Assembly: GCA_963701565.1 (NCBI GenBank)
Contig: CAVPAN010000010.1
Span: 445,698-509,697 of the forward strand
Length of the DNA: 64,000 nt
Source: an uncultured Microthrixaceae bacterium
GTDB taxonomy: Bacteria; Actinomycetota; Acidimicrobiia; Acidimicrobiales; DATDAH01
Reading direction: 5' to 3'
Of the stretch, positions 1 through 37,798 are shown piece by piece. The notes under the pieces are model-generated. The model was given only the letters and a program-made list of their open reading frames with translations. It had not been told where the DNA came from and did not search any database. A program made the position numbers and the translations under genes. The stretch's first letter is position 1. Every line of letters begins with the position of its first letter.

Positions 1-985
1 TGTCCAGCGGACCGAGCTCGACGTGCACGGCCGACCCGGCCGCCGACAGGTCGGCCACGAGGGCGTCGACCGCATCGGTACCGGGACGGACCGTGCCGAC
101 CACCAGGAGCGGCACGGGATCCTCTCGACCGGCGACCAGCTCGAGGACGTCGAGTGTGCTGTCGTCAGCCAGGTGGAGGTCCTCGAGGACGATGGTGGTC
201 GGCTGGTCACGGGCCAGAGCGGCGAGCGCCTCGGCGCCCTCGCGGAGCATGCGTTGGCGGGCCCCCCCGAGCAGTCGACGCTCGAGGCGCGTGGCGGTCT
301 CGTCGTCGACGAGGGTGGGTAGCTGGACGAGCCACGACGGCGCGACCCGGTCCAGGGTCTCCCGGGTCAGGTCGGGCTCGACGGCCGCGAGGGCCCCGAG
401 GGCGTCGAGCAGGGCGAAATACGGCTCGGGTCCGCTGCGGGGGCGAAGACACCGACCCCGCAGGACCAGCCAACCGTCGAGGCCGTCGGTCTCCTCGAGG
501 AACTCGGCGACGACGGTGGACTTGCCGACCCCTGCGGGCCCGGTCACGAGGGCCGTCACCTGCTCGCCATCGAAGGCCCGAGCGGCCGCCTCGACGAGCC
601 GACCGATTTCCTGTTCCCGACCCACCACGCCGGGCCCCGAGGACGGCGCGACCGTTCCGACGGTGACCCTCCCACCGCGCTGCACGACCGGGGCCACCAG
701 GCGATAGCCGCGCCCGTGCACCGTCTTGATCACACCCTGGGCCTGGCCACTGTCGCCACAGGCACGACGGGCGAGCTTGATGCGGGAGGTGAGCGCCGTC
801 TCGGAGACGAACCGGTCGCCCCAGACCTCGTCGAGCAGCTCGATCTTGGTGACGAGCCGGTCCGGGTGGGTGACGAGGTGCTCGATGACGGCGAGCACCT
901 GTGGCTCCACCGCGACCAGCTCGCCGTCGCGTCGCAACTCTGCGGCCGCGGTGTCGAGGAGGCAGTTCCCGAACTCGTAGATCAC
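1..985 (-). CDS. Transcriptional regulator: OmpR/PhoB-type winged-helix DNA-binding domain fused to a P-loop (AAA_16/STAND-like) NTPase; 3' part lies outside the window
   Basis: Own minus-strand translation from GTG at 983-985 gives VIYEFGNCLLDTAAAELRRDGELVAVEPQVLAVIEHLVTHPDRLVTKIELLDEVWGDRFVSETALTSRIKLARRA...KTVHGRGYRLVAP, followed by Walker A GPAGVGKST. It is absent from the ORF track because no stop lies inside the window. Confidence 0.75.
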   Translation of the reverse strand, partial: MIYEFGNCLLDTAAAELRRDGELVAVEPQVLAVIEHLVTHPDRLVTKIELLDEVWGDRFVSETALTSRIKLARRACGDSGQAQGVIKTVHGRGYRLVAPVVQRGGRVTVGTVAPSSGPGVVGREQEIGRLVEAAARAFDGEQVTALVTGPAGVGKSTVVAEFLEETDGLDGWLVLRGRCLRPRSGPEPYFALLDALGALAAVEPDLTRETLDRVAPSWLVQLPTLVDDETATRLERRLLGGARQRMLREGAEALAALARDQPTTIVLEDLHLADDSTLDVLELVAGREDPVPLLVVGTVRPGTDAVDALVADLSAAGSAVHVELGPLD

Positions 986-1151
986 CGATGCAGCCAGATC
1001 GCTCTCGCCGCCATCAGCGCCAATGGTAGCCCTGTCCGGATGCCGGCCCGGACGCCCGGGACGGCGGCGGCGCCGGGTTCCGGGCCCGTCGGCCACGCGA
1101 CGGCGCCGGCACCTCCGGGCCTCGTGAGGCCGACGGTGGTGCCGACGCCGT

Positions 1152-1177
1152 GGGGGTCGGGGGCCGGGGGTCGGGGG
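1152..1177 (+). other. Four consecutive G5 tracts (G5-TC-G5-CC-G5-TC-G5), a canonical G-quadruplex-forming motif (C5 tracts on the transcribed minus strand)
   Basis: Read directly: tGGGGGtcGGGGGccGGGGGtcGGGGGtcc. It lies in the gap between the dsrE-like stop (1191) and the regulator start (985). Confidence 0.5.
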
Positions 1178-1190
1178 TCCGGTGTCGGGC

Positions 1191-1568
1191 TCAGAGGCAG
1201 ATCGTGGCCGCGCCCTCCTTGATGAGGTCGTAGACGGGCCCGGCCCCGGTGATGGTCACGCCGTCGATGAACTGGTCCTCGGTGTAGCCCCGCAGCGACG
1301 AGCAGGGCGGGCAGGCCCACACGGTGCCGCCGTTGCTCATGAACTTGGTGATGAGCTCCTTCATCGAGGGGTCGTGGGGGTTCATCTGGACGACCTCGGC
1401 GGCCCCCTTGCGCAGGACGTCGACGCCGGCGCTGACGCAGAACACGGTGACGTCCTGGCCGTTGGCGACACCGGCGTTGGCCAGGGTCCAGGCCACGGTG
1501 GCCCGCTCGTCGTCGATGCTGCGGGAGAGCAGGACGATGGTCTTGTCAGTGGTGGTGGAATCGGACAT
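1191..1568 (-). CDS. DsrE/DsrF-like sulfur-relay family protein
   Basis: 125-aa ORF MSDSTTTDKTIVLLSRSIDDERATVAWTLANAGVANGQDVTVFCVSAGVDVL...VWACPPCSSLRGY. The size, Rossmann-like N-terminus and CxxC-type motif are typical of the DsrE family. Confidence 0.7.
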   Translation of the reverse strand: MSDSTTTDKTIVLLSRSIDDERATVAWTLANAGVANGQDVTVFCVSAGVDVLRKGAAEVVQMNPHDPSMKELITKFMSNGGTVWACPPCSSLRGYTEDQFIDGVTITGAGPVYDLIKEGAATICL

Positions 1569-2430
1569 GGCATTGCTCCTTCTGTTTGGGTAGGTAGTCG
1601 CCGTTCGGCGACGTCGCCGGGCTCAGGCGGTCGCCCGCCGGGTGCCCGAGATCAGGGTCCCGGGCGGCGGCGTTGGCCCCCCGGTAGGCCTCGACCGAGG
1701 CCAGAAGACGGAATTCGGTCGGCCCCAGGACGTCCTGGACGGGCCCGATCTGGCTCCGATGGCAGGCCATGGCCTCCTGCTTGCGGTCGAGCGGGGCGCC
1801 GTCGAGGCGGGTGGTGACGTGGGGGCGGTCGACGCCGCGCTCCGGGTAGCCGGGCCAGAACGCCTCGATCTGATGGAGCCGGTCCACGCAGACCTCGGGC
1901 CAGGCGGCGCCGGCGGCGGTGGTGAGGTGTGGGATGCGGTCGCCCCGCTGCCGGAGGGCCAGATCGGTCCACCGACCGACGGCGCGGTGGTCGGGATGGC
2001 CGGTGACCCCGTCGGGGCCGAACCCCAGCACCAGGTCGGGGCGGACCTCGTCGATGATCGAACCGACACGGCGGGCACCCAGCGCGTCGGGGACCTGCTC
2101 GCAGGCACCGTCGCTGTAGCCGAGGACGATGCCGTGCTCGGCGCCGAGCACACCCAGCGCGGCGTCGAGCTCTTCGCGCCGCTCGGCGGCCAGCTCGACG
2201 GGCGGGCGCCGGGTCGGGTCGGGGGTCCCGTGCTCGCCGACAGTGGCGGTCACGTTGATGACCCGGCCGCCCCGCCGGGCGATCTCGGCCATGAGCCCTG
2301 CGCCGAGGAAGCTCTCGTCGTCGGGGTGGGCCCAGACCGCCAGCAGCACCGACGGGGTCGGGGCGAGCCGGTCGGCGAATTCCTCGATCGTCTCGTCGGT
2401 GCCTGTGGTCGTGGCGGGGGCGAAGCTCAT
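1546..2430 (-). CDS. PIG-L/LmbE family N-acetylglucosaminyl deacetylase
   Basis: 294-aa ORF with the family motifs VWAHPDDESF and GHPDHRAVG. It overlaps the downstream dsrE-like start by 23 nt. Confidence 0.85.
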   Translation of the reverse strand: MSFAPATTTGTDETIEEFADRLAPTPSVLLAVWAHPDDESFLGAGLMAEIARRGGRVINVTATVGEHGTPDPTRRPPVELAAERREELDAALGVLGAEHGIVLGYSDGACEQVPDALGARRVGSIIDEVRPDLVLGFGPDGVTGHPDHRAVGRWTDLALRQRGDRIPHLTTAAGAAWPEVCVDRLHQIEAFWPGYPERGVDRPHVTTRLDGAPLDRKQEAMACHRSQIGPVQDVLGPTEFRLLASVEAYRGANAAARDPDLGHPAGDRLSPATSPNGDYLPKQKEQCHVRFHHH

Positions 2431-2671
2431 GGCCCGATGATCCAGATCCGCGCCCGCCCAAGCTTGGCGATCATCGGGCGATCAGGTGGTTTTCGGGCCG
2501 CCCCGTCGTCACAACTCCGTCACGATCGCCCCGGGCGCTCTCCGCGGCCCTGGTCCAGAGGGGTGCCGGTGGAACGCGCCCTGGCCGTACGCGGCAACAT
2601 CGGCTCGGTGGCACTCGCTCAGCTCCGCGACGTGATCGCGGTCATCCTTGACCTTCCGAGCTAGCGCCCTC

Positions 2672-2756
2672 GGCTTGAAGCCCACGCCGAACCCTCGATC
2701 CGCAGAGGTGGGTCATCTGGCCCTGCACCCCGGTGGGCGGCTGGGCCTGACAGGCG
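2672..2756. repeat. Copy 1 of a conserved ~85-nt intergenic element (second copy at 23016-23102)
   Basis: ggcttgaagcccacgccgaaccctcgatccgcagaggtgggtcatc...ctgggcctgacaggcg. The first 46 nt differ at 2 positions from copy 2, the last 16 nt are identical, and the centre is variable. Confidence 0.6.
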
Positions 2757-2779
2757 CGAGTCCCCTCCGTCGCCGTCGC

Positions 2780-3334
2780 TCAGCGGGGGACCTCTCGGCC
2801 GGCGAGGGCCATCAGGAGCTCGGTGTCGGTGGCATCGGCGGGGGGCGCGGTCGGGGATGCGATGAGGTCCAGGGCGCGCACGTCGTCGGTGCACACCGCC
2901 TCCACCAGCGTCGAGATGGCGGGCCGCGCCTCCTCTGCGAACTCGATCGGGCGACCGACGCTCACCGAGAGGTCCCAGGCATGGGCCAGCGCGTCAATGG
3001 CGGGAAAGCCGATGACCACCGAACCGGGCAGATCGCCGAACGGGGTCGTGTGGACGGCGTCGAGCACGCCGTCTCCCCGCCACATCGCCAACGCCCGTTG
3101 GACGGTGTCGTCGGCGAAGGCCACCAGGTCGCCGTCGTAGGGCACTGCGCCCACGGTGACCTCGATCGAGACGATGTCCTGACCCGTGACGACGCCGCCC
3201 CACAGGAGCTGGTGGTGCACCCAGTCGATGGTCTTCTTGGCCTTGGCGGCTGGCTCGACGGCGAAGACGTGGTCGTACTTGTTCTTGAAGCAGCGAGCCT
3301 CGTTCGCCCGCAGCCCGGCCAGTGCGGCCGCCAC
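2780..3334 (-). CDS. MDMPI_N/DinB-superfamily protein (actinobacterial TIGR03086-type)
   Basis: 184-aa ORF. The C-terminal pattern ...AHAWDLSVSVGRPIEF...DTELLMALAGRE resembles TIGR03086-type proteins. The ORF follows the vapC stop in the same frame after 5 codons, so the first helix may be missing. Confidence 0.55.
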   Translation of the reverse strand: MAAALAGLRANEARCFKNKYDHVFAVEPAAKAKKTIDWVHHQLLWGGVVTGQDIVSIEVTVGAVPYDGDLVAFADDTVQRALAMWRGDGVLDAVHTTPFGDLPGSVVIGFPAIDALAHAWDLSVSVGRPIEFAEEARPAISTLVEAVCTDDVRALDLIASPTAPPADATDTELLMALAGREVPR

Positions 3335-3349
3335 CGGCGAGACGCGGGA

Positions 3350-3721
3350 TCAGTACGGCTCGGCCAGGCCGGCGAACATCGGGTAGTGGCGGACGTTGTG
3401 GGTCGCTAGCGCGGCGCCCACGTGCCGAGTCGTGGCTGCGACCACGAGGTCGGCCACCGCCAGGCCGTGCGAGGCCCGGTACTGCCGCCCCAGCTCACCG
3501 GCCAGCCGGGCGATCGGCTGGGTCACCTCAGCCCAGTCGAGTCCGGCGAAGAGCGCCTCGGCCGCACTTCGCTCCGGTGAACGCAGGCCCCGGATCACCT
3601 CGATGCGGGAGATCTCCGAGCACGTCGGCACCTCGTCCAGCCCGGCCAGCCACCGTCTGGCAGGGGCGTGGCCCCGCAGGACGTCGATCAGGACGGTGGT
3701 GTCGAGGACGACAGGCCCCAA
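3350..3721 (-). CDS. vapC: Type II toxin VapC (PIN domain)
   Basis: 123-aa ORF MGPVVLDTTVLIDVLRG...ADLVVAATTRHVGAALATHNVRHY, with the PIN acidic residues in their usual positions. Confidence 0.85.
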   Translation of the reverse strand: MGPVVLDTTVLIDVLRGHAPARRWLAGLDEVPTCSEISRIEVIRGLRSPERSAAEALFAGLDWAEVTQPIARLAGELGRQYRASHGLAVADLVVAATTRHVGAALATHNVRHYPMFAGLAEPY

Positions 3722-4005
3722 CGGTCCTCCACCACCCGGTCACGATCACGGTCCGTCGCCCGGGCGGTCTCGACGAAGTCCCCGCCCGGGGGCAGGTCGG
3801 GCACCGCTCCGAAGGAGGCGTCCACCGCAGCCTGGAAGCGCCCCAAGCGGGAGTCCGTGTCCTGGCGCCCGCCCCCGATCAGACGATCGAGGGCCTCCCG
3901 GATGAGCTCGGACTTGGTCCGCCGCTGGCGGCTCGCCTGCTCGTCCAGCCAGCGGTGCTGGTCGTCATCGAGGTAGATCTGCGTGCGCCGCACGATGTAT
4001 AGCAT
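3688..4005 (-). CDS. vapB: Ribbon-helix-helix (CopG-type) antitoxin VapB
   Basis: Internal ATG at 4003-4005 of ORF 3688..4218 gives MLYIVRRTQIYLDDDQHRWLDEQASRQRRTKSELIREALDRLIG. It lies directly upstream of vapC and overlaps it. Confidence 0.7.
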   Translation of the reverse strand: MLYIVRRTQIYLDDDQHRWLDEQASRQRRTKSELIREALDRLIGGGRQDTDSRLGRFQAAVDASFGAVPDLPPGGDFVETARATDRDRDRVVEDRWGLSSSTPPS

Positions 4006-4009
4006 ACAT

Positions 4010-4115
4010 CGCTGAATCGAGGATGGCCCGGTGATGTCGATGACCGTCGCGCTGACCCGCCAGGTCACGGTCACCTCGGTGCCGATCAGGCCGGGTGGGA
4101 CCGAGTAGCCGTTGC
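4010..4115 (-). mobile_element. Remnant of an IS21-family transposase (IstA C-terminal segment)
   Basis: The same reading frame upstream of vapB reads GVSVGNGYSVPPGLIGTEVTVTWRVSATVIDITGP. This resembles the conserved IstA block (...gnrYsvP..l.G..v.vr.....v.i). There is no start and no remainder of the gene. Confidence 0.3.
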
Positions 4116-4172
4116 CCACACTGACACCAGAGCGTTGTCCGCGACCTTGTGGACCCGTGCCAGCTCGGCCGG

Positions 4173-6221
4173 TCAGCGCCCCGACACCACCCCACCGAGG
4201 CCGACTGCGTCGCGGCACACCGCGGCGAGGGTGGCCTCCCAGTCCACAGGCCGGTAGTGCAGGAACAGCGAGGCGTAGTACCGGCCCCGCAGCGGGGTCG
4301 GGCGGCTGTGGGGCAGCTTGGCGCTCTCATAGAGCAGCATCTGGCCGGGCTCGAGCACGATGTCGTGGGCCCGGCCGGCTGCGTCCTCGATCCGCAGGGG
4401 CCAGGGCTCGTCGGTGTCGGCGGCGATGTGGACCACGGAGCTGATGACGTGGGTGGCCACCCGGTCACAGTGCCGATGCAGGGTCTGGCCCTCGCCGTAG
4501 AGCCGGATGCCGTAGGCGGCACTCGCGACCAGGGGGCCGCCGTACCACTCCTCGTGGAGCTCCTGCATCTCCTGGAGGATCTCCTGGCCCGCCTCCCCCA
4601 CCGGGATGATCGACGGGTCCCCCGACGGGAGGTAGGTGGCGTCGCTGTGCTCCGCCTCGGCCCGGTCCCGGTTGTCCTCGAACAGCGAGCGCAGGCGGGC
4701 GTGGACCGCGGGTGGCGTGTCGATCACCCGGAAGCCGTCGGCCGTGCGCGTGGGGACGAGCTCGTGCTGGCGGGCGGTGAGGGTGTCGGCGTCTCCGGAG
4801 AAGACGGAGTCGACGGGCAGGGCCCTGCGAGCCCAGAAGACGACGGTGAACCGCTGGTCGGCGAAGTCCAGGGACTCGGCGTCGACCGGGCGCACCTCGT
4901 GGAACGCGTCACTGCGGAAGAAGACCAAGCGGTTGTCGAGCGGCGCGATCTCGGTGTATGTGGCCACGGGGTCGATGACGCCGCCCCGGTCGACGGTGTC
5001 GAAGAGGCGCAGGGCCCCGCCGGAGAACCGCCGCGGCTCCCGGTTGAAGTAGTAGACGGCGCTGACCACCCGGGTCTCCGTGTCGGGGCTGCCGGCGTCC
5101 GTGTGGAGCGTGAAGTGGTCACCGGGACCGTGGACGGTGAGCTGACGTTCGATGTGTTGCAGGGAGAACCAGGGGACGTCGAGCTCACGGCGCACGTGGG
5201 GCAGGAGCCGGGTGATCGGTCCTTCGAAGAGGTCCCAGACCTCCGCGAGGTCGAACAGCGTCTGGGAGCGCCGGAGCTCCAGGTACGGGCCGCCCGAGTC
5301 CTCGTCGGGCCGGGTGACGCCGCTCGCCACGAAGTCCGCTTCCCGGGCCAGGGCGAAGGTCAGGAGGCGGGCGTGACCCTCCGGGTCGAGGAAGTCGTCG
5401 AACTGGACGAAGCGGGGGGCGACCGATTCGGGCTCGGGTGGCTCCGCGACGCCCACCGGATCGGGCGGCGACTCGGGCTGGGGGACCACGACCCGTTGGG
5501 CCCGCTCCAGGATCTCGGCCGCGACGTCGGCGGCCTCCGGACGGGGGCCACGGAGCGTGAGCACGTGCTCGGCCAGCCGGGTGACGAGGGCACGGGTCGC
5601 CGGCGTGGTGGCCGGCGGCGCCACCAGGTGGCCGAGGAGCGGGAGGACCGCTCGGGCCCCGGTCACCTCGGCGGGCTCCCAGTCCACGCCGTCGACGAAG
5701 GCCGTGTCCACGATCGCCGCGATGGGGAGGGCGGGCCGATCGGCCCCGGGCGCCTGTCCCTCCATCGGGCCGATCGCCATCGGGAGCACCCGCCCCGAGG
5801 GCTCGATGGCGACGAGGCCGTCGGCGTAGAGGTCGGCACCGGCGGCGACGAGCGCGCCCAGAAGGGTGGACCGACCCGAGCCGGCGGGCCCGAGGACGAC
5901 CACCGCCTGTGGCCCGGCGGCGACGACACCGGCCCGGACGATGACCGTTCCCGGGCGGAGGCGGACGACGATCCCCGGCAGGTCGGCGACGAGCTCCGCG
6001 ATGGCCGTCTCGGCGTCGACCTCCCGGCGCAGACCGCCGTGGTCCCGTTCCAGGTCGTACAAGCCGGGGCCCTCGGCGGTGATGGCGTAGTGCAGGTCGA
6101 CCCGGCCCCCCGAGGTGGAGGGCGGGGGACCGTCGACGGCGGCGCGCCACACGGCGACGAGCTCAGGCGGGAGCTCGACCTCGACCTGGATGCCGCCGAG
6201 GCCCAGCGACAGTGGGCTCAC
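4173..6221 (-). CDS. Tri-domain fusion: HprK-related P-loop kinase-like domain + two 2OG-Fe(II) oxygenase (prolyl 4-hydroxylase-type) domains
   Basis: 682-aa ORF. The N-terminal part has VVLGPAGSGRSTLLGALVAAGADLYADGLVAIE, an HPr-kinase C-domain-like P-loop. The middle part has FTLHTDAGS...RLVFFRSDAFHEVRPV...RFTVVFW (HxD...H...R). The C-terminal part has LHRHCDRVATHVISSVVHI...LLYESAKLPHSRP...GRYYASLFLHYRP (HxD...H). Confidence 0.8.
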   Translation of the reverse strand: MSPLSLGLGGIQVEVELPPELVAVWRAAVDGPPPSTSGGRVDLHYAITAEGPGLYDLERDHGGLRREVDAETAIAELVADLPGIVVRLRPGTVIVRAGVVAAGPQAVVVLGPAGSGRSTLLGALVAAGADLYADGLVAIEPSGRVLPMAIGPMEGQAPGADRPALPIAAIVDTAFVDGVDWEPAEVTGARAVLPLLGHLVAPPATTPATRALVTRLAEHVLTLRGPRPEAADVAAEILERAQRVVVPQPESPPDPVGVAEPPEPESVAPRFVQFDDFLDPEGHARLLTFALAREADFVASGVTRPDEDSGGPYLELRRSQTLFDLAEVWDLFEGPITRLLPHVRRELDVPWFSLQHIERQLTVHGPGDHFTLHTDAGSPDTETRVVSAVYYFNREPRRFSGGALRLFDTVDRGGVIDPVATYTEIAPLDNRLVFFRSDAFHEVRPVDAESLDFADQRFTVVFWARRALPVDSVFSGDADTLTARQHELVPTRTADGFRVIDTPPAVHARLRSLFEDNRDRAEAEHSDATYLPSGDPSIIPVGEAGQEILQEMQELHEEWYGGPLVASAAYGIRLYGEGQTLHRHCDRVATHVISSVVHIAADTDEPWPLRIEDAAGRAHDIVLEPGQMLLYESAKLPHSRPTPLRGRYYASLFLHYRPVDWEATLAAVCRDAVGLGGVVSGR

Positions 6222-30457: not shown

Positions 30458-32341
30458 GTGAACCTGATCGGCGACTACGGGGTGATCGGCGACTGCCACT
30501 CCCTGGCGCTGGTGGGGCGGGACGGGTCGATCGACTGGTGCTGCTTCCCCCGGTTCGACTCGCCCTCGGTGCTGGCCCGGGTGCTGGACGAGGACGGAGG
30601 CGGGCACTTCACCATCGCCCCGGCCGAGTCGCCCCGGGCCACCGAGCGCGCCTACCTACCCGCCACCAACGTCCTGGCCACCCGGTTCCACACGGGCACC
30701 GGCGTGCTCGAGGTCACCGACTGCATGCCGGTGGCACCCTTCGATCCCGCCCACCCGGCCGAGGTGACCACCCGCCACTCGATCCTGCGCCGAGTCCGGT
30801 GCCTGGAGGGCCGCGTCACCGCCGAAGTCCGACTCGATCCCCGCCCCGAGTACGGGGTGGTTCGGCCCCGGTTCACCCGCACGTCGGCCACCGCCTGGTC
30901 GATCGTCGGCGGGCCCGACGCCCTGTGGGTTCGGGCCACCCTGCCGGTCGAGGGGAACGACGACGGCGTGGCCGCCACCTGGGCGCTCGAGGCCGGCCAG
31001 GAGGAGCTCATCGAGATGGCGTGGACCCCGGCCGCCGACCACCCCGCCCAGGGCTCGGTCGACACCCGGGCTGCGCTCGGCACCCGCTTCACCGACACCG
31101 TCGCCTTCTGGCAGGACTGGTTCGCCCACGACATCTCCTACGACGGCGAGCACGCCCGCAAGGTCCACCGCTCGGCCCTCGTCCTCAAGGCCCTCACCTA
31201 CGCCCCCACCGGCGCCGTCGTCGCGGCGGGCACGACCTCGCTGCCCGAGTGGATCCGCGAGGGCCGCAACTGGGACTACCGCTTCACCTGGATCCGCGAC
31301 GCCACGCTCACCCTCGCCTCGCTCGTCATCCTCGGCTCGCTCCACGAGGCCGGCGCCTTCAAGGGCTGGCTCGAGCGCACGGCGGCGGGACGGCCCGAGG
31401 ACCTGCAGATCATGTACCGGGTCACCGGCGAGCGGCTCCTCCCCGAGGTCGAGCTCGACCACTTGGCCGGCCACCGGGGCTCACTACCGGTGCGGGTCGG
31501 CAATGGGGCCGCCAGACAGGTCCAGCTCGACTCCTACGGGCAGCTCATCGAGGCCGCATACGGCTTCGCCGAGGCCGGCGGCGAGCTTTCCGCCTCCAAC
31601 GGCGAGTTCCTCGCCCGCGTGGCCGACCTCGCCGTCGAGTCCTGGCGCCTACCCGACCAGGGCATCTGGGAGATCCGCGACGAGCCCCGCCACTTCGTGC
31701 ACTCCAAGCTCAACTGCTGGGTCGCCCTCGACCGGGCCGTCCGCCTGACCGAGGCCGGGCGCATCGCCGGCGACGTCGACCGGTGGATCCACGAGCGGGA
31801 CCTGCTGGCCGAATGGCTGCGCAGCGAAGGCTCCCCCGACGGCTGGTTCACCCAGGCCGGCGGCCGCCCCGTGGCCGACGCCGCCACCCTGCTCGTCCCC
31901 GCGCTCGGCTTCCTGCCGGTCGCCCACCCGGCCGTTGACCGCACGGTCGAGACCGTCACCCGCGACCTCAGCGACGGCACGCTGGTCCACCGCTACCTCG
32001 ACCCGGACGGTCTCGACGGCAAGGAGGGGGCGTTCCTGCTGTGCTCGTTCTGGCTCCTCGACTGCCTGACCCACGCCGGCCGCATCGACGAGGCCGACGA
32101 GCTGATGGAGGCGCTGCTCGGCCACGCCAACGACGTGGGCCTCTTCTCCGAGATGGTTGATCCCACCACCGGCGAGGCGCTCGGCAACACCCCCCAAGCG
32201 TTCACCCACATGGCCGTCGTTACCTCAGCCGACGCCCTCACCGCCGCCCGCCACGGCGACCTCCCACCACCCGAACAGGCCTACGCCTTCGCCCTCGAGG
32301 CCATCCGACGACGTCGGCGAGCGGTCGAGCCCGGCGGCTGA
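30458..32341 (+). CDS. Glycoside hydrolase family 15 (glucoamylase/trehalase-like)
   Basis: GTG 30458 gives VNLIGDYGVIGDCHSLALVGRDGSIDWCCFPRFDSPSV...NWDYRFTWIRDA...AFLLCSFWL. Confidence 0.9.
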   Translation: MNLIGDYGVIGDCHSLALVGRDGSIDWCCFPRFDSPSVLARVLDEDGGGHFTIAPAESPRATERAYLPATNVLATRFHTGTGVLEVTDCMPVAPFDPAHPAEVTTRHSILRRVRCLEGRVTAEVRLDPRPEYGVVRPRFTRTSATAWSIVGGPDALWVRATLPVEGNDDGVAATWALEAGQEELIEMAWTPAADHPAQGSVDTRAALGTRFTDTVAFWQDWFAHDISYDGEHARKVHRSALVLKALTYAPTGAVVAAGTTSLPEWIREGRNWDYRFTWIRDATLTLASLVILGSLHEAGAFKGWLERTAAGRPEDLQIMYRVTGERLLPEVELDHLAGHRGSLPVRVGNGAARQVQLDSYGQLIEAAYGFAEAGGELSASNGEFLARVADLAVESWRLPDQGIWEIRDEPRHFVHSKLNCWVALDRAVRLTEAGRIAGDVDRWIHERDLLAEWLRSEGSPDGWFTQAGGRPVADAATLLVPALGFLPVAHPAVDRTVETVTRDLSDGTLVHRYLDPDGLDGKEGAFLLCSFWLLDCLTHAGRIDEADELMEALLGHANDVGLFSEMVDPTTGEALGNTPQAFTHMAVVTSADALTAARHGDLPPPEQAYAFALEAIRRRRRAVEPGG

Positions 32342-32981: not shown

Positions 32982-33221
32982 ATGGGTTCTGCCATCTCAG
33001 TCCGCCTCGATGACGAAGCCGAACAGGCACTCCGCACGCTCGAAGCAGCAGGGTTGTCGCGGTCAGAGGCGATCCGAGATGCCTTGGTGCGATCTGCCAA
33101 TCGGCTTCGCCGCAGTTCCGAACTCGCCGCCGAGGTGGCCGCCCTCGAGGCTGACGAGGCCGACCGCAACGAGATGGGTGCGGTCGCCGACCTGATGGAG
33201 TCGCTGCGTGCTCCACGGTGA
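32982..33221 (+). CDS. mazE: Ribbon-helix-helix antitoxin (MazE-position)
   Basis: MGSAISVRLDDEAEQALRTLEAAGLSRSEAIRDALV... It overlaps the mazF start. Confidence 0.7.
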   Translation: MGSAISVRLDDEAEQALRTLEAAGLSRSEAIRDALVRSANRLRRSSELAAEVAALEADEADRNEMGAVADLMESLRAPR

Positions 33222-33525
33222 CATCTACCGGTTCAAGCTCCCGAAAGGCATCGGACACGAGCAGCACGGCGACCGGTTCGGCGTCGTAGTCCAGGCCGAG
33301 GAGTTCTTGCCTCGCTCCGTGGTGATCGTCGCGCCCACCTCCCGCAGCGCTCGCGCGGCGTCGTTTCGTCCGGAGATCGAGGTGAACGGTGAGGGCACCC
33401 GGGTGCTCGTCGAACAGATCGGCGCCGTGGACGCGCAGCGGCTCGGCGAACTCGCAGGTCATCTCAGCCGCGAGGAACTCTGGGGCGTTGACGAAGCCCT
33501 CCTGACGGTCCTCGGCCTGCGCTGA
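33208..33525 (+). CDS. mazF: MazF/PemK-family toxin
   Basis: LHGDIYRFKLPKGIGHEQHGDRFGVVVQAEEFLPRSVVIVAPTS...RVLVEQIGAVD. Confidence 0.85.
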   Translation: MLHGDIYRFKLPKGIGHEQHGDRFGVVVQAEEFLPRSVVIVAPTSRSARAASFRPEIEVNGEGTRVLVEQIGAVDAQRLGELAGHLSREELWGVDEALLTVLGLR

Positions 33526-33875
33526 ATCCTCCCCGAACTGCCCCCTATGGGCACCTCAGCCGCCTCCGGGGTGGGGCTGCCGTGCTCAATCAGCTGCGGG
33601 TGGCTCCCGGTCACCGCGCCACCGGTGCCGGCGGCTTGGTCGACCACGGTGGGGCTGCCGTGCTCGATCAGCTGCGGGTGGTTCGGGACCACGACCTCGG
33701 CGGCTTGGTCGACCGCGGTGGGGCTGCCGTGCTCGATCACCTGTTGGTGGTTCGGGGTATCGACCTCGCTGTCGGGTCGGAGGGCGAAGAAGGTCAGGAT
33801 GACCGCCGCCACGGCGCCGACCAGGACCAACAGCCATGTCGGGCTCCAGTCCCGGGTCGTCTCCGCCGGGAGCAC
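33459..33875 (-). pseudogene. Truncated paralogue of the HQQLIEHGSP-repeat membrane protein (3 repeats; N- and C-terminal ends replaced)
   Basis: ...LPAETTRDWSPTWLLVLVGAVAAVILTFFALRPDSEVDTPNHQQVIEHGSPTAVDQAAEVVVPNHPQLIEHGSPTVVDQAAGTGGAVTGSHPQLIEHGSPTPEAA... Homology to 41017..41718 starts at LPAETT. The 3' end runs into mazF. Confidence 0.45.
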
Positions 33876-34094
33876 CCTTGGGCTGCATTCGTTCCCACCC
33901 GGAGCGAGCCCCCGCCGCCAACTGACGTCACGGAAAAGCTCCGACTTCGACCTGGGCAACGAGTTCCTCCGCGGCCTGACGGAGCTCCACCTCGAGTTCC
34001 AGCCGCTGGCCTGATCCCGCGGGCGCTGGACAGGTCCTAGCCGATCGCCCACCATGGGGATCGCTGAACCTGCCGACCCGAGGAGGAGGGCGCA

Positions 34095-34865
34095 ATGGCC
34101 GAGACGGTCGTCGACACCGAGGAACTGCGGGAGCAGGTCCGGATCAAGTACCGGGAGGTGGCCGAGGAACCCGACCGCGAGTTCCACTTCCACACCGGGC
34201 GCCACCTGGCCGCCCACCTCGGCTACCCGGCCGAGGAGGTGGACCGCCTGGCGAACCGGGCGGTCGAGTCCTTCGCCGGCGTGGCCAACCCCTTCGCCCT
34301 CCGCCGTCCGGCGCCCGGTGAGCGGGTGGTGGACGTCGGCGTGGGCGCCGGCTTCGACGCCTTCCTGGCTGCCGAGCAGGTGGGTCCCAGCGGCTGCGTC
34401 GTCGGCGTCGACATGACCCAGGAGATGCTCGACAAGTTCCGGGCCACGACCGCGGAGATGGGCCTCGACAACGTCGAGGGGCGGGAGGGCTACGCCGAGG
34501 ACCTCCCCGTCGAGGACGGCTGGGCCGACGTCGTGATGGCCAACGGCGTCATCAACCTCTGCCCGGACAAGCAGGCCGTCTTCGCCGAGATCCACCGCGT
34601 CCTGCGCCCCGGCGGGACCCTCCAGTTCGCCGACATCGCCAATGGGCAGCAGGTGCCCGCCGAGGCGGTGAGGGACATCGACCTCTGGACGGCCTGAATT
34701 GCCGGAGGGCTGCCCCGTGCGGGCTGGCAGAAGATGATGGAGGACAGCGGGTTCACCGACATCGAGATCGGTGACCCGGTCGACACGTTCGGCGGCGCCG
34801 GCGGCGAGGCGAATGCCCGGACCTTCGAGGTGTTCGGCTACCCGTTCATGGCCCGCCGGCCCTGA
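34095..34865 (+). CDS. ArsM-like SAM-dependent methyltransferase with an in-frame TGA (34695-34697) at the conserved Cys position; Sec-containing or nonsense-mutated
   Basis: ...VVDVGVGAGFD (SAM motif I)...RDIDLWTA-TGA-IAGGLPRAGWQKMMEDSGFTDIEIGDPVDTF...FMARRP* The coding sense continues for 55 codons to TGA 34863-34865. Compare ArsM ..LLWVGCLAGAL....GF. Confidence 0.7.
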
Positions 34866-35105
34866 CCCGAAGTACCGTCGCCCCGATCGGCGCTCGACGA
34901 GAGCTCGGGCTCACCGGGGAGATGGGCTCGCCCGCCCTCGCCCTGCGCACGACCTGTGACCGCTTCGCGCTCGAGCGCGAGCACGGCGCCGCCGAGGAGT
35001 GGCGGGAGCGGTTGCGCGACCTGGTCGCTCGCTACGACGGGCAGGAGCCGCCCCCCGACGCCGTCCGGGGCCGGACGCTCCTCGACGGCTGATGCCCGTG
35101 GGACG

Positions 35106-36362
35106 ATGACCTCCATGCCGGCGACGCGCTCGACCACCGTGGTCGTCGTCGGAGGGGGCCACAACGGCCTGGCGATGAGCCGCCGGCTCTCGGAGCGGGT
35201 CATCGACCACGTCGTGCTGGAGCGGGGCGAGGTGGCCTGCTCGTGGCGGACCCAGCGTTGGGACTCGTTCACACTGCTCACCCCGAACTGGCAGAGCCGC
35301 CTCCCCGGGCACCGCTACGACGGCGACGACCCCGACGGGTTCATGGACGCGGCCGAGATCGTGGCCTTCCTCGAGGGCTACGCCGACGTCCTCGACTCAC
35401 CCGTCGTCACCGGCACCACCGTGACCGCCGTCCGGCCGGCCGACGGCGGCTACGACGTCGTCACCGACATGGGGACCTGGCGCGGCCGATGCGTCGTGCT
35501 CGCCGGGGGGGCCGGCAACCTGCCGAGCCTGCCCGGCTTCGCCCCGGCGGTCCCGCCCGAGGTCGAGCAGGTGAACCCGCTCGACTACCGCAACCCCGAT
35601 CAGCTGCCCGACGGCGGCGTGCTGGTGGTCGGCGCCGCCGCCACCGGCATCCAACTGGCCGAGGAGATCCACGCATCCGGGCGTCCGGTCACCCTGTCGG
35701 TGGGCGAGCACGTCCGCCTGCCCCGCACCTACCGGGGCCGCGACATCCAGCACTGGATGGAGGCCATCGGGCGGCTGGACGAGCGCTACGACGAGGTCGA
35801 GGAGATCCTGAAGGCCCGTGGCGTGGCGTCGCCGCAGCTCGTCGGGACGCCGGAACGGCGCACGCTGAACCTGAACCACCTGACCGACGCCGGGGTGGCG
35901 CTGCGGGGACGACTCGGCACCGTCCGCGACGGCGAGGCGCTGTTCTCCGGCGGGCTCCGCAACCACTGCGCGCTGGCGGACCAGAAGCTCGACCGGTTGC
36001 TCGACGACATCGACGAGTGGATCACCGAGCACGGCCTGGACGGCGAGGTCGGCCCGGTCGAGCGCTACGAGCCCACCCGGACCGAACGCGGGGTGCCCCT
36101 GACGATGGACCTGCGCACGGGCCGGATCAGGGCGGTCGTCTGGGCCACCGGGTTCCGGCCCGACCTGTCGTGGGTCGAACTGCCCGTGTTCGGGCCGGAC
36201 GGGCGGCTGCGCCACGACGGCGGGGTCGTCGACGCCCCCGGCGTGTACCACCTCGGGGCCACCTTCCTGCGGCGACGGAAGTCGAGCTTCATCCACGGTG
36301 CCGAGGACGACACGGCCGACCTGGCCGACCACCTGGCGGGCTACCTGGCCGGCCCGGGTTGA
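35106..36362 (+). CDS. FAD/NAD(P)-binding oxidoreductase (flavin monooxygenase-like)
   Basis: MTSMPATRSTTVVVVGGGHNGLAMS... (GxGxxG), a second dinucleotide motif VLVVGAAATGIQLA, and ATGFRPD. Confidence 0.8.
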   Translation: MTSMPATRSTTVVVVGGGHNGLAMSRRLSERVIDHVVLERGEVACSWRTQRWDSFTLLTPNWQSRLPGHRYDGDDPDGFMDAAEIVAFLEGYADVLDSPVVTGTTVTAVRPADGGYDVVTDMGTWRGRCVVLAGGAGNLPSLPGFAPAVPPEVEQVNPLDYRNPDQLPDGGVLVVGAAATGIQLAEEIHASGRPVTLSVGEHVRLPRTYRGRDIQHWMEAIGRLDERYDEVEEILKARGVASPQLVGTPERRTLNLNHLTDAGVALRGRLGTVRDGEALFSGGLRNHCALADQKLDRLLDDIDEWITEHGLDGEVGPVERYEPTRTERGVPLTMDLRTGRIRAVVWATGFRPDLSWVELPVFGPDGRLRHDGGVVDAPGVYHLGATFLRRRKSSFIHGAEDDTADLADHLAGYLAGPG

Positions 36363-36363
36363 G

Positions 36364-37146
36364 TCAGCGCTTGGCGCCCACGTAGCCGAAGACCTGGAGG
36401 GGGGCCCGCAGCGGGAGCCCGTCGCGGACGTGGGCCTCGGCCAGTTCGGTGGCCCGGGCCCGGAACTCCTCCTCGCCGATGTGCTGGATCGCCTCGTAGG
36501 CGGGCCCGGTGGACGCGACGGTCCGGGCGAAGGTCGGCGGATCGGCGAACTCGAACACGAACGGGACCTCGAAGCGCTCGGCCACGTCGAAGCCCCGGTC
36601 CTCGAGGAAGGCCTCGCCCACCCCGGGACGGCCCAGGGACACCATGTCGGCCTGGTGCTGGACCGAGTCGTCGGTGGCCCACCGGAACGGGGCCAGTGCC
36701 CACGCCCCGGGGGACTTGCCCACGTTGCCCCACACCGTCAACCCGAGGCGTCCGCCCGGGACGAGCACCCGACGGGCCTCGTCGACCGCGTCGGGCGTCG
36801 TCCCCCAGATCCCGCGGAAGCTGGTGATCACGTCGAAGGAGGCGTCGGCCCAGGGCAGAGCGGCCATGTCGCCGACCCGGATGTCGGCGTCGGGGTTTCG
36901 GTCCCGGGCCACGGCCGCCAGGCGGGGCGAGGCGTCGATGCCCGCGCAGGTCGCCCCGCGGATGGCCGCCAGCTCGAGGGCGAGCCCCGAACCGCAGGCG
37001 GCGTCGAGCAGGCGGTCGCCCGCTCCGACGTCCAGCCGCTGGTGCAGGGCCAGGTACTCCCGGCAGGCCGCCGGCTCGCCGAGGGTGGCGAACTCGGCGG
37101 CCCGTCGCCCCCATCCCTCGTCGACCATCTTCCAGGACACCCGCAT
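36364..37146 (-). CDS. Class I SAM-dependent methyltransferase
   Basis: MRVSWKMVDEGWG...RLLDAACGSGLALE...FDVITSFRGIW...LVPGGRLGLTVW. Confidence 0.8.
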   Translation of the reverse strand: MRVSWKMVDEGWGRRAAEFATLGEPAACREYLALHQRLDVGAGDRLLDAACGSGLALELAAIRGATCAGIDASPRLAAVARDRNPDADIRVGDMAALPWADASFDVITSFRGIWGTTPDAVDEARRVLVPGGRLGLTVWGNVGKSPGAWALAPFRWATDDSVQHQADMVSLGRPGVGEAFLEDRGFDVAERFEVPFVFEFADPPTFARTVASTGPAYEAIQHIGEEEFRARATELAEAHVRDGLPLRAPLQVFGYVGAKR

Positions 37147-37252
37147 CGCCCCCCTCGTCCGAGTCGGCCCCACCCTAGGACAGGTCACTCCACCCCCGGC
37201 ACGGATCCGGCAGCGCCACTAGCGTCGGTGCCGAGCGACTCCGAGGAGGACC

Positions 37253-37798
37253 ATGGCCGAAGAGATCAACGGGGTGCCCTGCGACAAGATGTTCGGTGCC
37301 ATCGCCCGCTTCCGCGACGACGGCGATCTGGCCCAGTTCCGCTTCTCGGCGGTGAACACCTGGGTCGAGGGCACGGCCAGCGAGTCGTCCATCTTCGAGT
37401 GGTTCGGCATCGGCGCCGACCAGGAGCACGTCGAGCGGTTCAGCTTCCGGGCCGATCACCCGACGCTCGGGCACGGGCACGGCCCGACGCCGCAGGAGTA
37501 CGTGCTGCACGCGCTCGCCGCCTGCATCACCGCCGGCGTCGCCACCGGCGCCGCCGCCCGCAACATCGAGCTGCGCAGCGTGTCGTCGAAGGTGAGCGCC
37601 GACATCGACGTGCGGGGCGTGCTGGGCATCGACCCCGACGTCCGCAAGGGCTTCAGCAACGTCGACGTCGAGTTCGAGGTCGACGCGGACTGCGACGACG
37701 AGACGATGGACGCGCTGGTCGCCGCCGGGACCAAGTACTCGGCGGTCTACGACATGTTGGCCAACCCCACCGAGGTCAACGTCACCCGCAAGCTCTGA
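37253..37798 (+). CDS. OsmC family peroxiredoxin-like protein
   Basis: 181-aa ORF ...GHGPTPQEYVLHALAACITAG...KYSAVYDML. Confidence 0.8.
   Translation: MAEEINGVPCDKMFGAIARFRDDGDLAQFRFSAVNTWVEGTASESSIFEWFGIGADQEHVERFSFRADHPTLGHGHGPTPQEYVLHALAACITAGVATGAAARNIELRSVSSKVSADIDVRGVLGIDPDVRKGFSNVDVEFEVDADCDDETMDALVAAGTKYSAVYDMLANPTEVNVTRKL

Follow-up and report, generated by a model that had tools for sequence, protein, structure and literature searches.

Selenocysteine (Sec)-containing members of the arsenite S-adenosylmethyltransferase family (PRK11873/NF008823) are described from the GOS metagenome in PMC2398784, are assigned to 39 organisms in Peng et al. 2016 (PMC5029168), and stand, with the motif UxxG, among the experimentally verified selenoprotein families in Table 1 of a 2026 review (PMC13188914), which cites Fomenko et al. 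2007 as the source for the family. The published representative is WP_011987699.1. Three NCBIfam models, ArsM_AhpD_UU (NF041537), ArsM_DUF2284_UU (NF041536) and MTase_UXPK_star (NF047649), describe proteins with a homologous methyltransferase domain and Sec in UxxG, in which this domain is fused with a second domain and further Sec residues are present. At the RNA level, the relevant model is the SECIS element of E. coli fdhF, the minihelix to which SelB binds.

In a stretch of DNA of 64 kb (hereafter the window), we found at positions 34095-34865 of the plus strand what is, with a probability of roughly 0.88 based on sequence comparisons and a structure model, one intact gene, whose product would be a SAM-dependent methyltransferase of 256 residues from the ArsM-like clade, and in which codon 201, a UGA, would specify Sec. 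The motif at residues 201-204, U-I-A-G, places the protein with the published UxxG arsenite methyltransferase selenoproteins. With these it has in common that it is an ArsM-like SAM methyltransferase, that a single Sec, in U-x-x-G, takes the place of a conserved Cys, and that the gene is of the bacterial SelB/SECIS type. This selenoprotein family is already established, and the window adds a member to it.

There are also differences from the published family. When the 256-residue product was scored against profiles with Cys in place of Sec at 201, its best NCBIfam match was the arsenite methyltransferase model NF008823, at 206.6 bits, which is under the curated cutoff of 263. The next matches were the three above-mentioned selenoprotein “exception” models with an ArsM-like methyltransferase domain, at 184-200 bits against cutoffs of 460-575; unlike the fusions that these models describe, the window protein has a single domain. 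Two canonical ArsM cysteines of the As(III) site are also absent from this protein (see below). Judged by its sequence, the protein thus fails as an ArsM proper on two tests, the sub-cutoff score and the two missing cysteines.

The reading frame and its stop codons

Positions 34095-34697 (plus strand) contain an ORF of 200 codons that runs from an ATG at 34095 to a TGA at 34695-34697, and ends in ...RDIDLWTA-TGA. A Shine-Dalgarno-like stretch, GGAGGAGG, which contains GGAGG, can be read in the sequence at 34082-34089, 5 nt upstream of the ATG. Past the TGA, the frame is open for another 55 codons (34698-34862), IAGGLPRAGWQKMMEDSGFTDIEIGDPVDTF...FMARRP, up to a second TGA at 34863-34865; the complete extension reads IAGGLPRAGWQKMMEDSGFTDIEIGDPVDTFGGAGGEANARTFEVFGYPFMARRP. 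A previous sequence-only reading of this DNA had already claimed that the ORF halts at this TGA and that the frame continues as coding sequence for 55 codons, and both can be read directly in the sequence. GC3 is 0.96 before the in-frame TGA and 0.91 after it. The second TGA is the true stop; relatives stop at the same place, 55-69 codons past the Sec codon. In a six-frame scan of the 64 kb, the TGA at 34695-34697 was the sole coding-like read-through of its kind. Two other same-frame pairs, at 3352 (minus strand) and at 32339 (plus strand), were considered as further selenoprotein candidates and rejected, since each consists of adjacent separate genes.

Contigs from marine sediment, sediment and estuary, which stem from three independent metagenome runs, all show the in-frame TGA without variant, so that it is not a sequencing or assembly error. 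An identical 200-residue product has also been called in the ENA bin Acidimicrobiales_JAEUJM01 and in a Logan assembly. In contigs of two estuary runs (X3 and X4), the Shine-Dalgarno-like stretch has C instead of G at 34082 and lacks one nucleotide at 34087, which is strain-level variation of the translation-initiation region.

Relation of the predicted protein to ArsM

Codons 1-200 (34095-34694) encode a SAM-binding Rossmann domain (Pfam Methyltransf_31/25/11, which are also the Pfam matches of the 256-residue product), and public gene calls stop at the end of this part, giving the 200-residue protein P0001. In a phmmer search of the PDB, CrArsM and CmArsM were the best matches (5evj/4fr0, E about 1e-23 to 1e-22). 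An AF2 model of the read-through protein (pLDDT 89.9, pTM 0.90) also had CmArsM, as 4fr0 and 6cx6, as its best matches in the PDB according to Foldseek, both at a TM of about 0.7 (for 4fr0, E 6.7e-19 and TM 0.69). Pfam, phmmer and Foldseek agree on a class I SAM methyltransferase fold whose nearest solved relative is ArsM. In the model, codons 202-256 (34698-34862) are the C-terminal part of the same protein, and contribute a helix (residues 208-217) and two strands (221-225 and 247-254) that are integral to the predicted fold, so a product of 200 residues would be incomplete.

Although CmArsM, CrArsM and human AS3MT (PDB 4fr0, 6cx6, 5evj and 8xt7) are the best sequence and structure matches of the window protein, the latter is shorter (256 residues) and is without their C-terminal domain, has Sec in place of Cys, and has a conserved FHFHTGR near its N-terminus. 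This FHFHTGR stretch (residues 30-36) is almost invariant in Sec-type and Cys-type proteins alike, and lies outside the phmmer alignment with CmArsM. Within that alignment, the TGA codon (34695-34697, residue 201) falls on Cys224 of CmArsM, in the loop GEC(L)(A/G)GAL, in line with the earlier claim that it occupies the conserved Cys of an ArsM block. The conserved cysteines of the As(III) site in CmArsM are Cys72, Cys174 and Cys224. One of these three positions is kept in the window protein (Cys224, as Sec). The other two, Cys72 and Cys174, correspond to Val63 and Gly151, and both replacements are invariant in 120 homologues. Cys-type homologues have a further Cys eight residues before the active Cys (C-x7-C; 100 of 120 sequences), whereas Sec-type proteins have Arg at that position (residue 193 in the window protein) in 89% of sequences.

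Conservation of the in-frame TGA

We collected relatives of the gene using its N-terminal 200 residues as the query, with one genome per species. As this query stops before the Sec site, the search introduces no bias on the codon found there. At the 80 genome loci obtained (64-75% identical), the codon is TGA in 77 cases and TAG in one; one locus has TAA with further stops, and another has lost 1 nt directly ahead of the TGA. Among 80 metagenome contigs, TGA is present in 72 and TAG in three, and in the remaining five the site is off the contig or unmatched. Of 79 TGA sequences examined, all have an open frame past the TGA, over 55-69 codons, or 108 codons in one of them. Amino-acid identity to the window protein is 70.4% downstream of the TGA compared with 70.2% upstream, and all near-invariant C-terminal residues of the relatives are kept in the window. 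Since the TGA is retained at almost all of these loci, with an open and equally conserved frame behind it, the comparison indicates that TGA is the ancestral state of the window's subclade, and not a recent lesion.

More distant homologues were represented by the 120 best hits in protein databases, 114 of which are full-length proteins with Cys at the Sec position. The alignments thus point to a classic Sec/Cys pair, as the sequence-only reading had supposed. That reading had also proposed an alignment of orthologues as a check, and in it the closest ones carry TGA and the same downstream hairpin, not TGC. The Cys-type (TGC) homologues are a distinct group, with the C-x7-C signature and different downstream DNA.

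Some individual sequences depart from the common pattern. Two relatives look damaged, namely the one that lacks 1 nt ahead of the TGA (L025, around 940-960) and the one in which the codon is TAA and is followed by two additional stops (L080, 3601-3700). In Blastococcus deserti, the codon at the Sec position is TGG (Trp; L085:10610-10612), while the hairpin sequence is fully preserved, and three proteins (P0076, P0101 and P0011) have the Sec-type signature with Trp or Leu at the Sec position. In the genes with TGG or a Leu codon, a Sec codon seems to have given way to a sense codon.

The codons around the UGA are skewed to U. In 79 relatives, Gly at position -1 is encoded by GGT in 63% of cases (19% expected) and Ile at position +1 by ATT in 47% (8% expected), and the resulting context is U-UGA-AUU (at the codons that correspond to 34692-34700 of the window). 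This U-rich context may be a tuning of Sec insertion versus termination.

A SECIS-like hairpin downstream of the UGA

Positions 34709-34728, starting 11 nt past the UGA, can form a hairpin of 7 bp (dG -8.5 to -9.9 kcal/mol). Its arms are GCUGCCC and GGGC-GGC, with U34725 bulged in the latter, and its loop is CGUGC (34716-34720). The sequence-only reading had described a 7-bp hairpin with a bulged U and a GU-containing pentaloop at this distance, and had likened the spacing to the E. coli paradigm; all of these elements are present, and the geometry of the hairpin is that of fdhF. If the U of the UGA is counted as nt 1, the hairpin occupies nt 15-34, and the stem starts at nt 15 in the window and in fdhF. 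The 5′ arm consists of G15-C21 in the window and of nt 15-21 in fdhF, and the 3′ arm of G27-C34 and nt 26-31, respectively. In both RNAs, G23-U24 is in the apical loop (34717-34718 in the window) and one U is bulged. However, the loop has 5 nt in the window (C22 G23 U24 G25 C26) compared with G22 G23 U24 C25 in fdhF, and the bulge is formed by U31 of the 3′ arm in the window, but by a U of the 5′ arm in fdhF. All pairs of the window stem are G-C or G-U.

The synonymous sites in the hairpin region are frozen. Arg at position +7 from the Sec codon is CGT in 52 of 52 TGA sequences, where 15% is expected from codon usage in these genes, Leu at +5 is CTG in 95% (42% expected), and Gly at +9 is GGC in 96% (52% expected). 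Between the window and the relatives nearest to it, dS drops from 0.66-0.81 upstream of the TGA to 0.29-0.49 past it. In a second class of sequences, which reads LPCAGW rather than LPRAGW, the 7-bp hairpin is kept with a CGUGY loop, but is shifted by 2 nt, and three related LPCAGW sequences have one compensatory G-C to U-A change. By contrast, TGC homologues have unrelated DNA downstream, without such a hairpin.

The window hairpin is not more stable than shuffled sequences (z = +0.95), and its stability relative to synonymous recoding, within the window's class, is no better than the null (median rank 0.36). Since a hairpin of this energy is unremarkable in sequence with 71% GC, we dropped stability as an argument. 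Thus, the stable SECIS-like fold that had been suggested as a check is borne out insofar as a 7-bp hairpin folds, but this hairpin is no stabler than GC-rich sequence yields by chance. With RNAalifold and pair counting, tried for two registers, about 88% of cells were paired but there was almost no covariation, and neither covariation nor compensatory changes were above shuffles in either register. Covariation tests are uninformative here because the hairpin hardly varies, and we therefore relied on the conservation of synonymous sites instead. A search of Rfam at gathering and permissive thresholds gave no match, which says nothing about bacterial SECIS elements. Finally, because the hairpin is intact in Blastococcus deserti in the presence of TGG, an intact hairpin is no proof of current use.

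Association with Sec machinery

We looked for the genes of Sec insertion with tblastn, using E. coli SelA, SelB and SelD, and with ARAGORN. Within the 64-kb window, selA, selB, selD and tRNA-Sec were not found. When the same scan was run over the 160 related loci, Sec machinery was detected at one of them only, in an alphaproteobacterial Rhodospirillaceae MAG (L066); a weak match to a SelB-like GTPase at another locus (L145) was disregarded. Positions 1-4809 of the Rhodospirillaceae locus contain, in this order, selB (9-1445), tRNA-SeC with the anticodon TCA (2806-2901), the methyltransferase gene (from 3001) and selD (3793-4809). The selenoprotein gene is thus embedded in a cluster of Sec machinery.

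A second link is provided by the sequences with TAG at the Sec codon. These are from Modestobacter sp. DSM 44400 (L018:3610-3612), Modestobacter being a member of Geodermatophilaceae, and from three soil contigs (L111, L119 and L143). Over the 55 downstream codons, the four sequences differ at 6-18 nt but at only 0-5 amino acids, and the hairpin is intact. As the differences are mostly synonymous, the region past the TAG is still under purifying selection. According to PMC5330540, which cites Mukai et al. 2016, selenoprotein genes of Geodermatophilaceae have UAG at the Sec site, and the tRNA-Sec of this family has the anticodon CUA. The codon in this gene thus changes in step with the tRNA-Sec anticodon of the lineage. 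UAG-encoded Sec in Geodermatophilaceae explains the TAG in these four sequences; in the window, where the codon is TGA, it plays no part. As selenoproteins of Geodermatophilaceae, PMC5330540 names FDH, AhpC and proteins with the UGSC motif, and the methyltransferase may be a UAG-Sec protein of this family that is not listed there.

The occurrence of the Sec trait in related organisms is also relevant. Pseudonocardia asaccharolytica DSM 44247, in which the gene has the TGA form and is 72% identical (L003), is recorded as SelD+, SelA+ and SelB+, with five selenoproteins, in Tables S1 and S2 of PMC5029168. Within Acidimicrobiales, Table S1 of the same paper records Ilumatobacter coccineus, I. nonamiensis and Candidatus Microthrix parvicella as SelD+, SelA+ and SelB+, and Table S2 gives 15 and 10 selenoproteins for the two Ilumatobacter species. 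We infer that selA, selB, selC and selD are present in the source genome of the window, and that selenium is incorporated in the source organism.

Proposed decoding and alternative explanations

By analogy with the SelB pathway of E. coli, the hairpin at nt 15-34 would display its G23-U24 loop to SelB. A complex of SelB-GTP and Sec-tRNA(Sec) would bind the hairpin and, competing with RF2, bring Sec to the ribosome, and translation would then run on through the last 55 codons, completing the fold. In the finished protein, the selenolate would stand in for the thiolate of ArsM Cys224, which holds the metalloid next to the methyl group of SAM, so that Sec201 would presumably be a substrate-binding or catalytic nucleophile.

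Among the other explanations, the one that survives best, though we consider it quite improbable, is that the gene is a relic in an organism that has lost its Sec machinery, such that the UGA terminates translation and yields a truncated, inactive product of 200 residues. The lack of Sec machinery within the 64-kb window would fit this explanation, as would the patchiness of the Sec trait in Actinobacteria, where Acidimicrobium ferrooxidans is recorded in PMC5029168 as being without it, and the existence of derived forms whose codon is now TGG, Leu or TAA, or whose frame is shifted. However, a relic would not be expected to match what we observe in the 55 downstream codons, which keep all near-invariant residues and are as conserved as the upstream part. 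Moreover, three independent populations have the same TGA and the same frame, and PMC5029168 documents marine and sediment Acidimicrobiales as Sec users with rich selenoproteomes.

Still less probable, in our estimation, is that the UGA is read through without Sec, by a near-cognate tRNA that inserts Trp or Cys or under a reassigned genetic code. Trp (TGG) variants of the Sec-type gene do exist, but most genes in the window, including the methyltransferase gene itself, have TGA as their normal stop codon, so the code is not reassigned. Read-through without Sec also conflicts with the occurrence of TAG in exactly the family whose tRNA-Sec reads UAG, with the position of the Rhodospirillaceae gene next to tRNA-SeC, selB and selD, and with the presence of a SECIS-like hairpin.

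The sequence-only reading had raised a third alternative, a nonsense mutation of TGC to TGA that made the gene a pseudogene in the source genome, and although these codons are one base apart and that reading deemed the window rich in pseudogenes, this explanation is refuted by the retention of the TGA, ancestral to the whole subclade, across about 150 diverged sequences, and by the separate standing of the Cys-type homologues, with their own signature and other downstream DNA.

Genomic neighbourhood and possible substrates

With Sec insertion as the preferred reading, the question arises of what the enzyme methylates. In about 38 of 80 related loci (flanks of L003-L082), the Sec methyltransferase gene follows a gene for a fusion of an ArsR-type HTH domain with rhodanese, and is often followed by a DsrE-like gene; a second methyltransferase gene and an MFS transporter gene are transcribed divergently in the same recurrent neighbourhood. 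In the window, the downstream genes encode a flavin monooxygenase-like protein (Pyr_redox_3, 34956-36362), a second methyltransferase (36364-37218, minus strand) and OsmC (37223-37798), an arrangement in common with two other loci (L022 and L081). Among the neighbours in the window, no arsC, acr3 or arsB was seen.

Since two of the canonical ArsM cysteines are missing, arsenite may not be the substrate of the Sec-type subclade. A tentative proposal, which we regard as rather doubtful, is that this subclade consists of selenolate-dependent methyltransferases for a substrate of the chalcogen or persulfide type, operating in a stress operon with the ArsR-rhodanese and DsrE-like proteins. Candidate substrates would be sulfide, selenide, tellurium species or a thiol. 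This idea is derived from the loss of two of the three As(III) cysteines together with the conserved FHFHTGR, from the loss in Sec-type proteins of the second Cys of the C-x7-C pair of Cys-type proteins, and from the placement of the gene, in about 40% of loci, between the ArsR-rhodanese regulator and the DsrE-like gene. Under this proposal, the DsrE-like protein would be a sulfur carrier and the ArsR-rhodanese protein a sensor.

Two further features lie upstream of the gene. At 32982-33525, a gene for a toxin of the PemK/MazF type (33208-33525, Pfam E 7.5e-18) comes after a small ORF, and the two together look like a type II toxin-antitoxin pair. This pair is directly upstream of a 69-nt tandem repeat (33629-33768; 2.0 copies, 88% match) that itself lies just upstream of the methyltransferase gene. 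On the minus strand, the repeat would encode a repeated HPQLIEHGSPT after a hydrophobic segment, and in the plus-strand frame tested the repeat region gave no Pfam match.

Significance

Public gene calls, for the window as well as for relatives, split the gene into a 200-residue product and a 43-residue ORF (L002:427-1197, with MMEDSGF... in L002, and L001:107-877). Such systematic splitting by gene callers hides the Sec form in protein databases, and the enzyme is consequently under-annotated in Acidimicrobiia, in other Actinomycetota and in Proteobacteria of soils and sediments. The annotation should be corrected to one selenoprotein gene of 256 codons, as the public calls that end at 200 residues are too short. 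The findings leave the current understanding of Sec decoding unchanged; within it, the switch from TGA to TAG in Geodermatophilaceae is a natural experiment that confirms tRNA-Sec as the reader of this codon. The gene adds to the known selenoproteins a widespread ArsM-like enzyme with a single Sec, and the make-up of its active site suggests that the substrate is not arsenite. The gene also marks the source organism, a member of Acidimicrobiales from sediment, as a probable selenium user.
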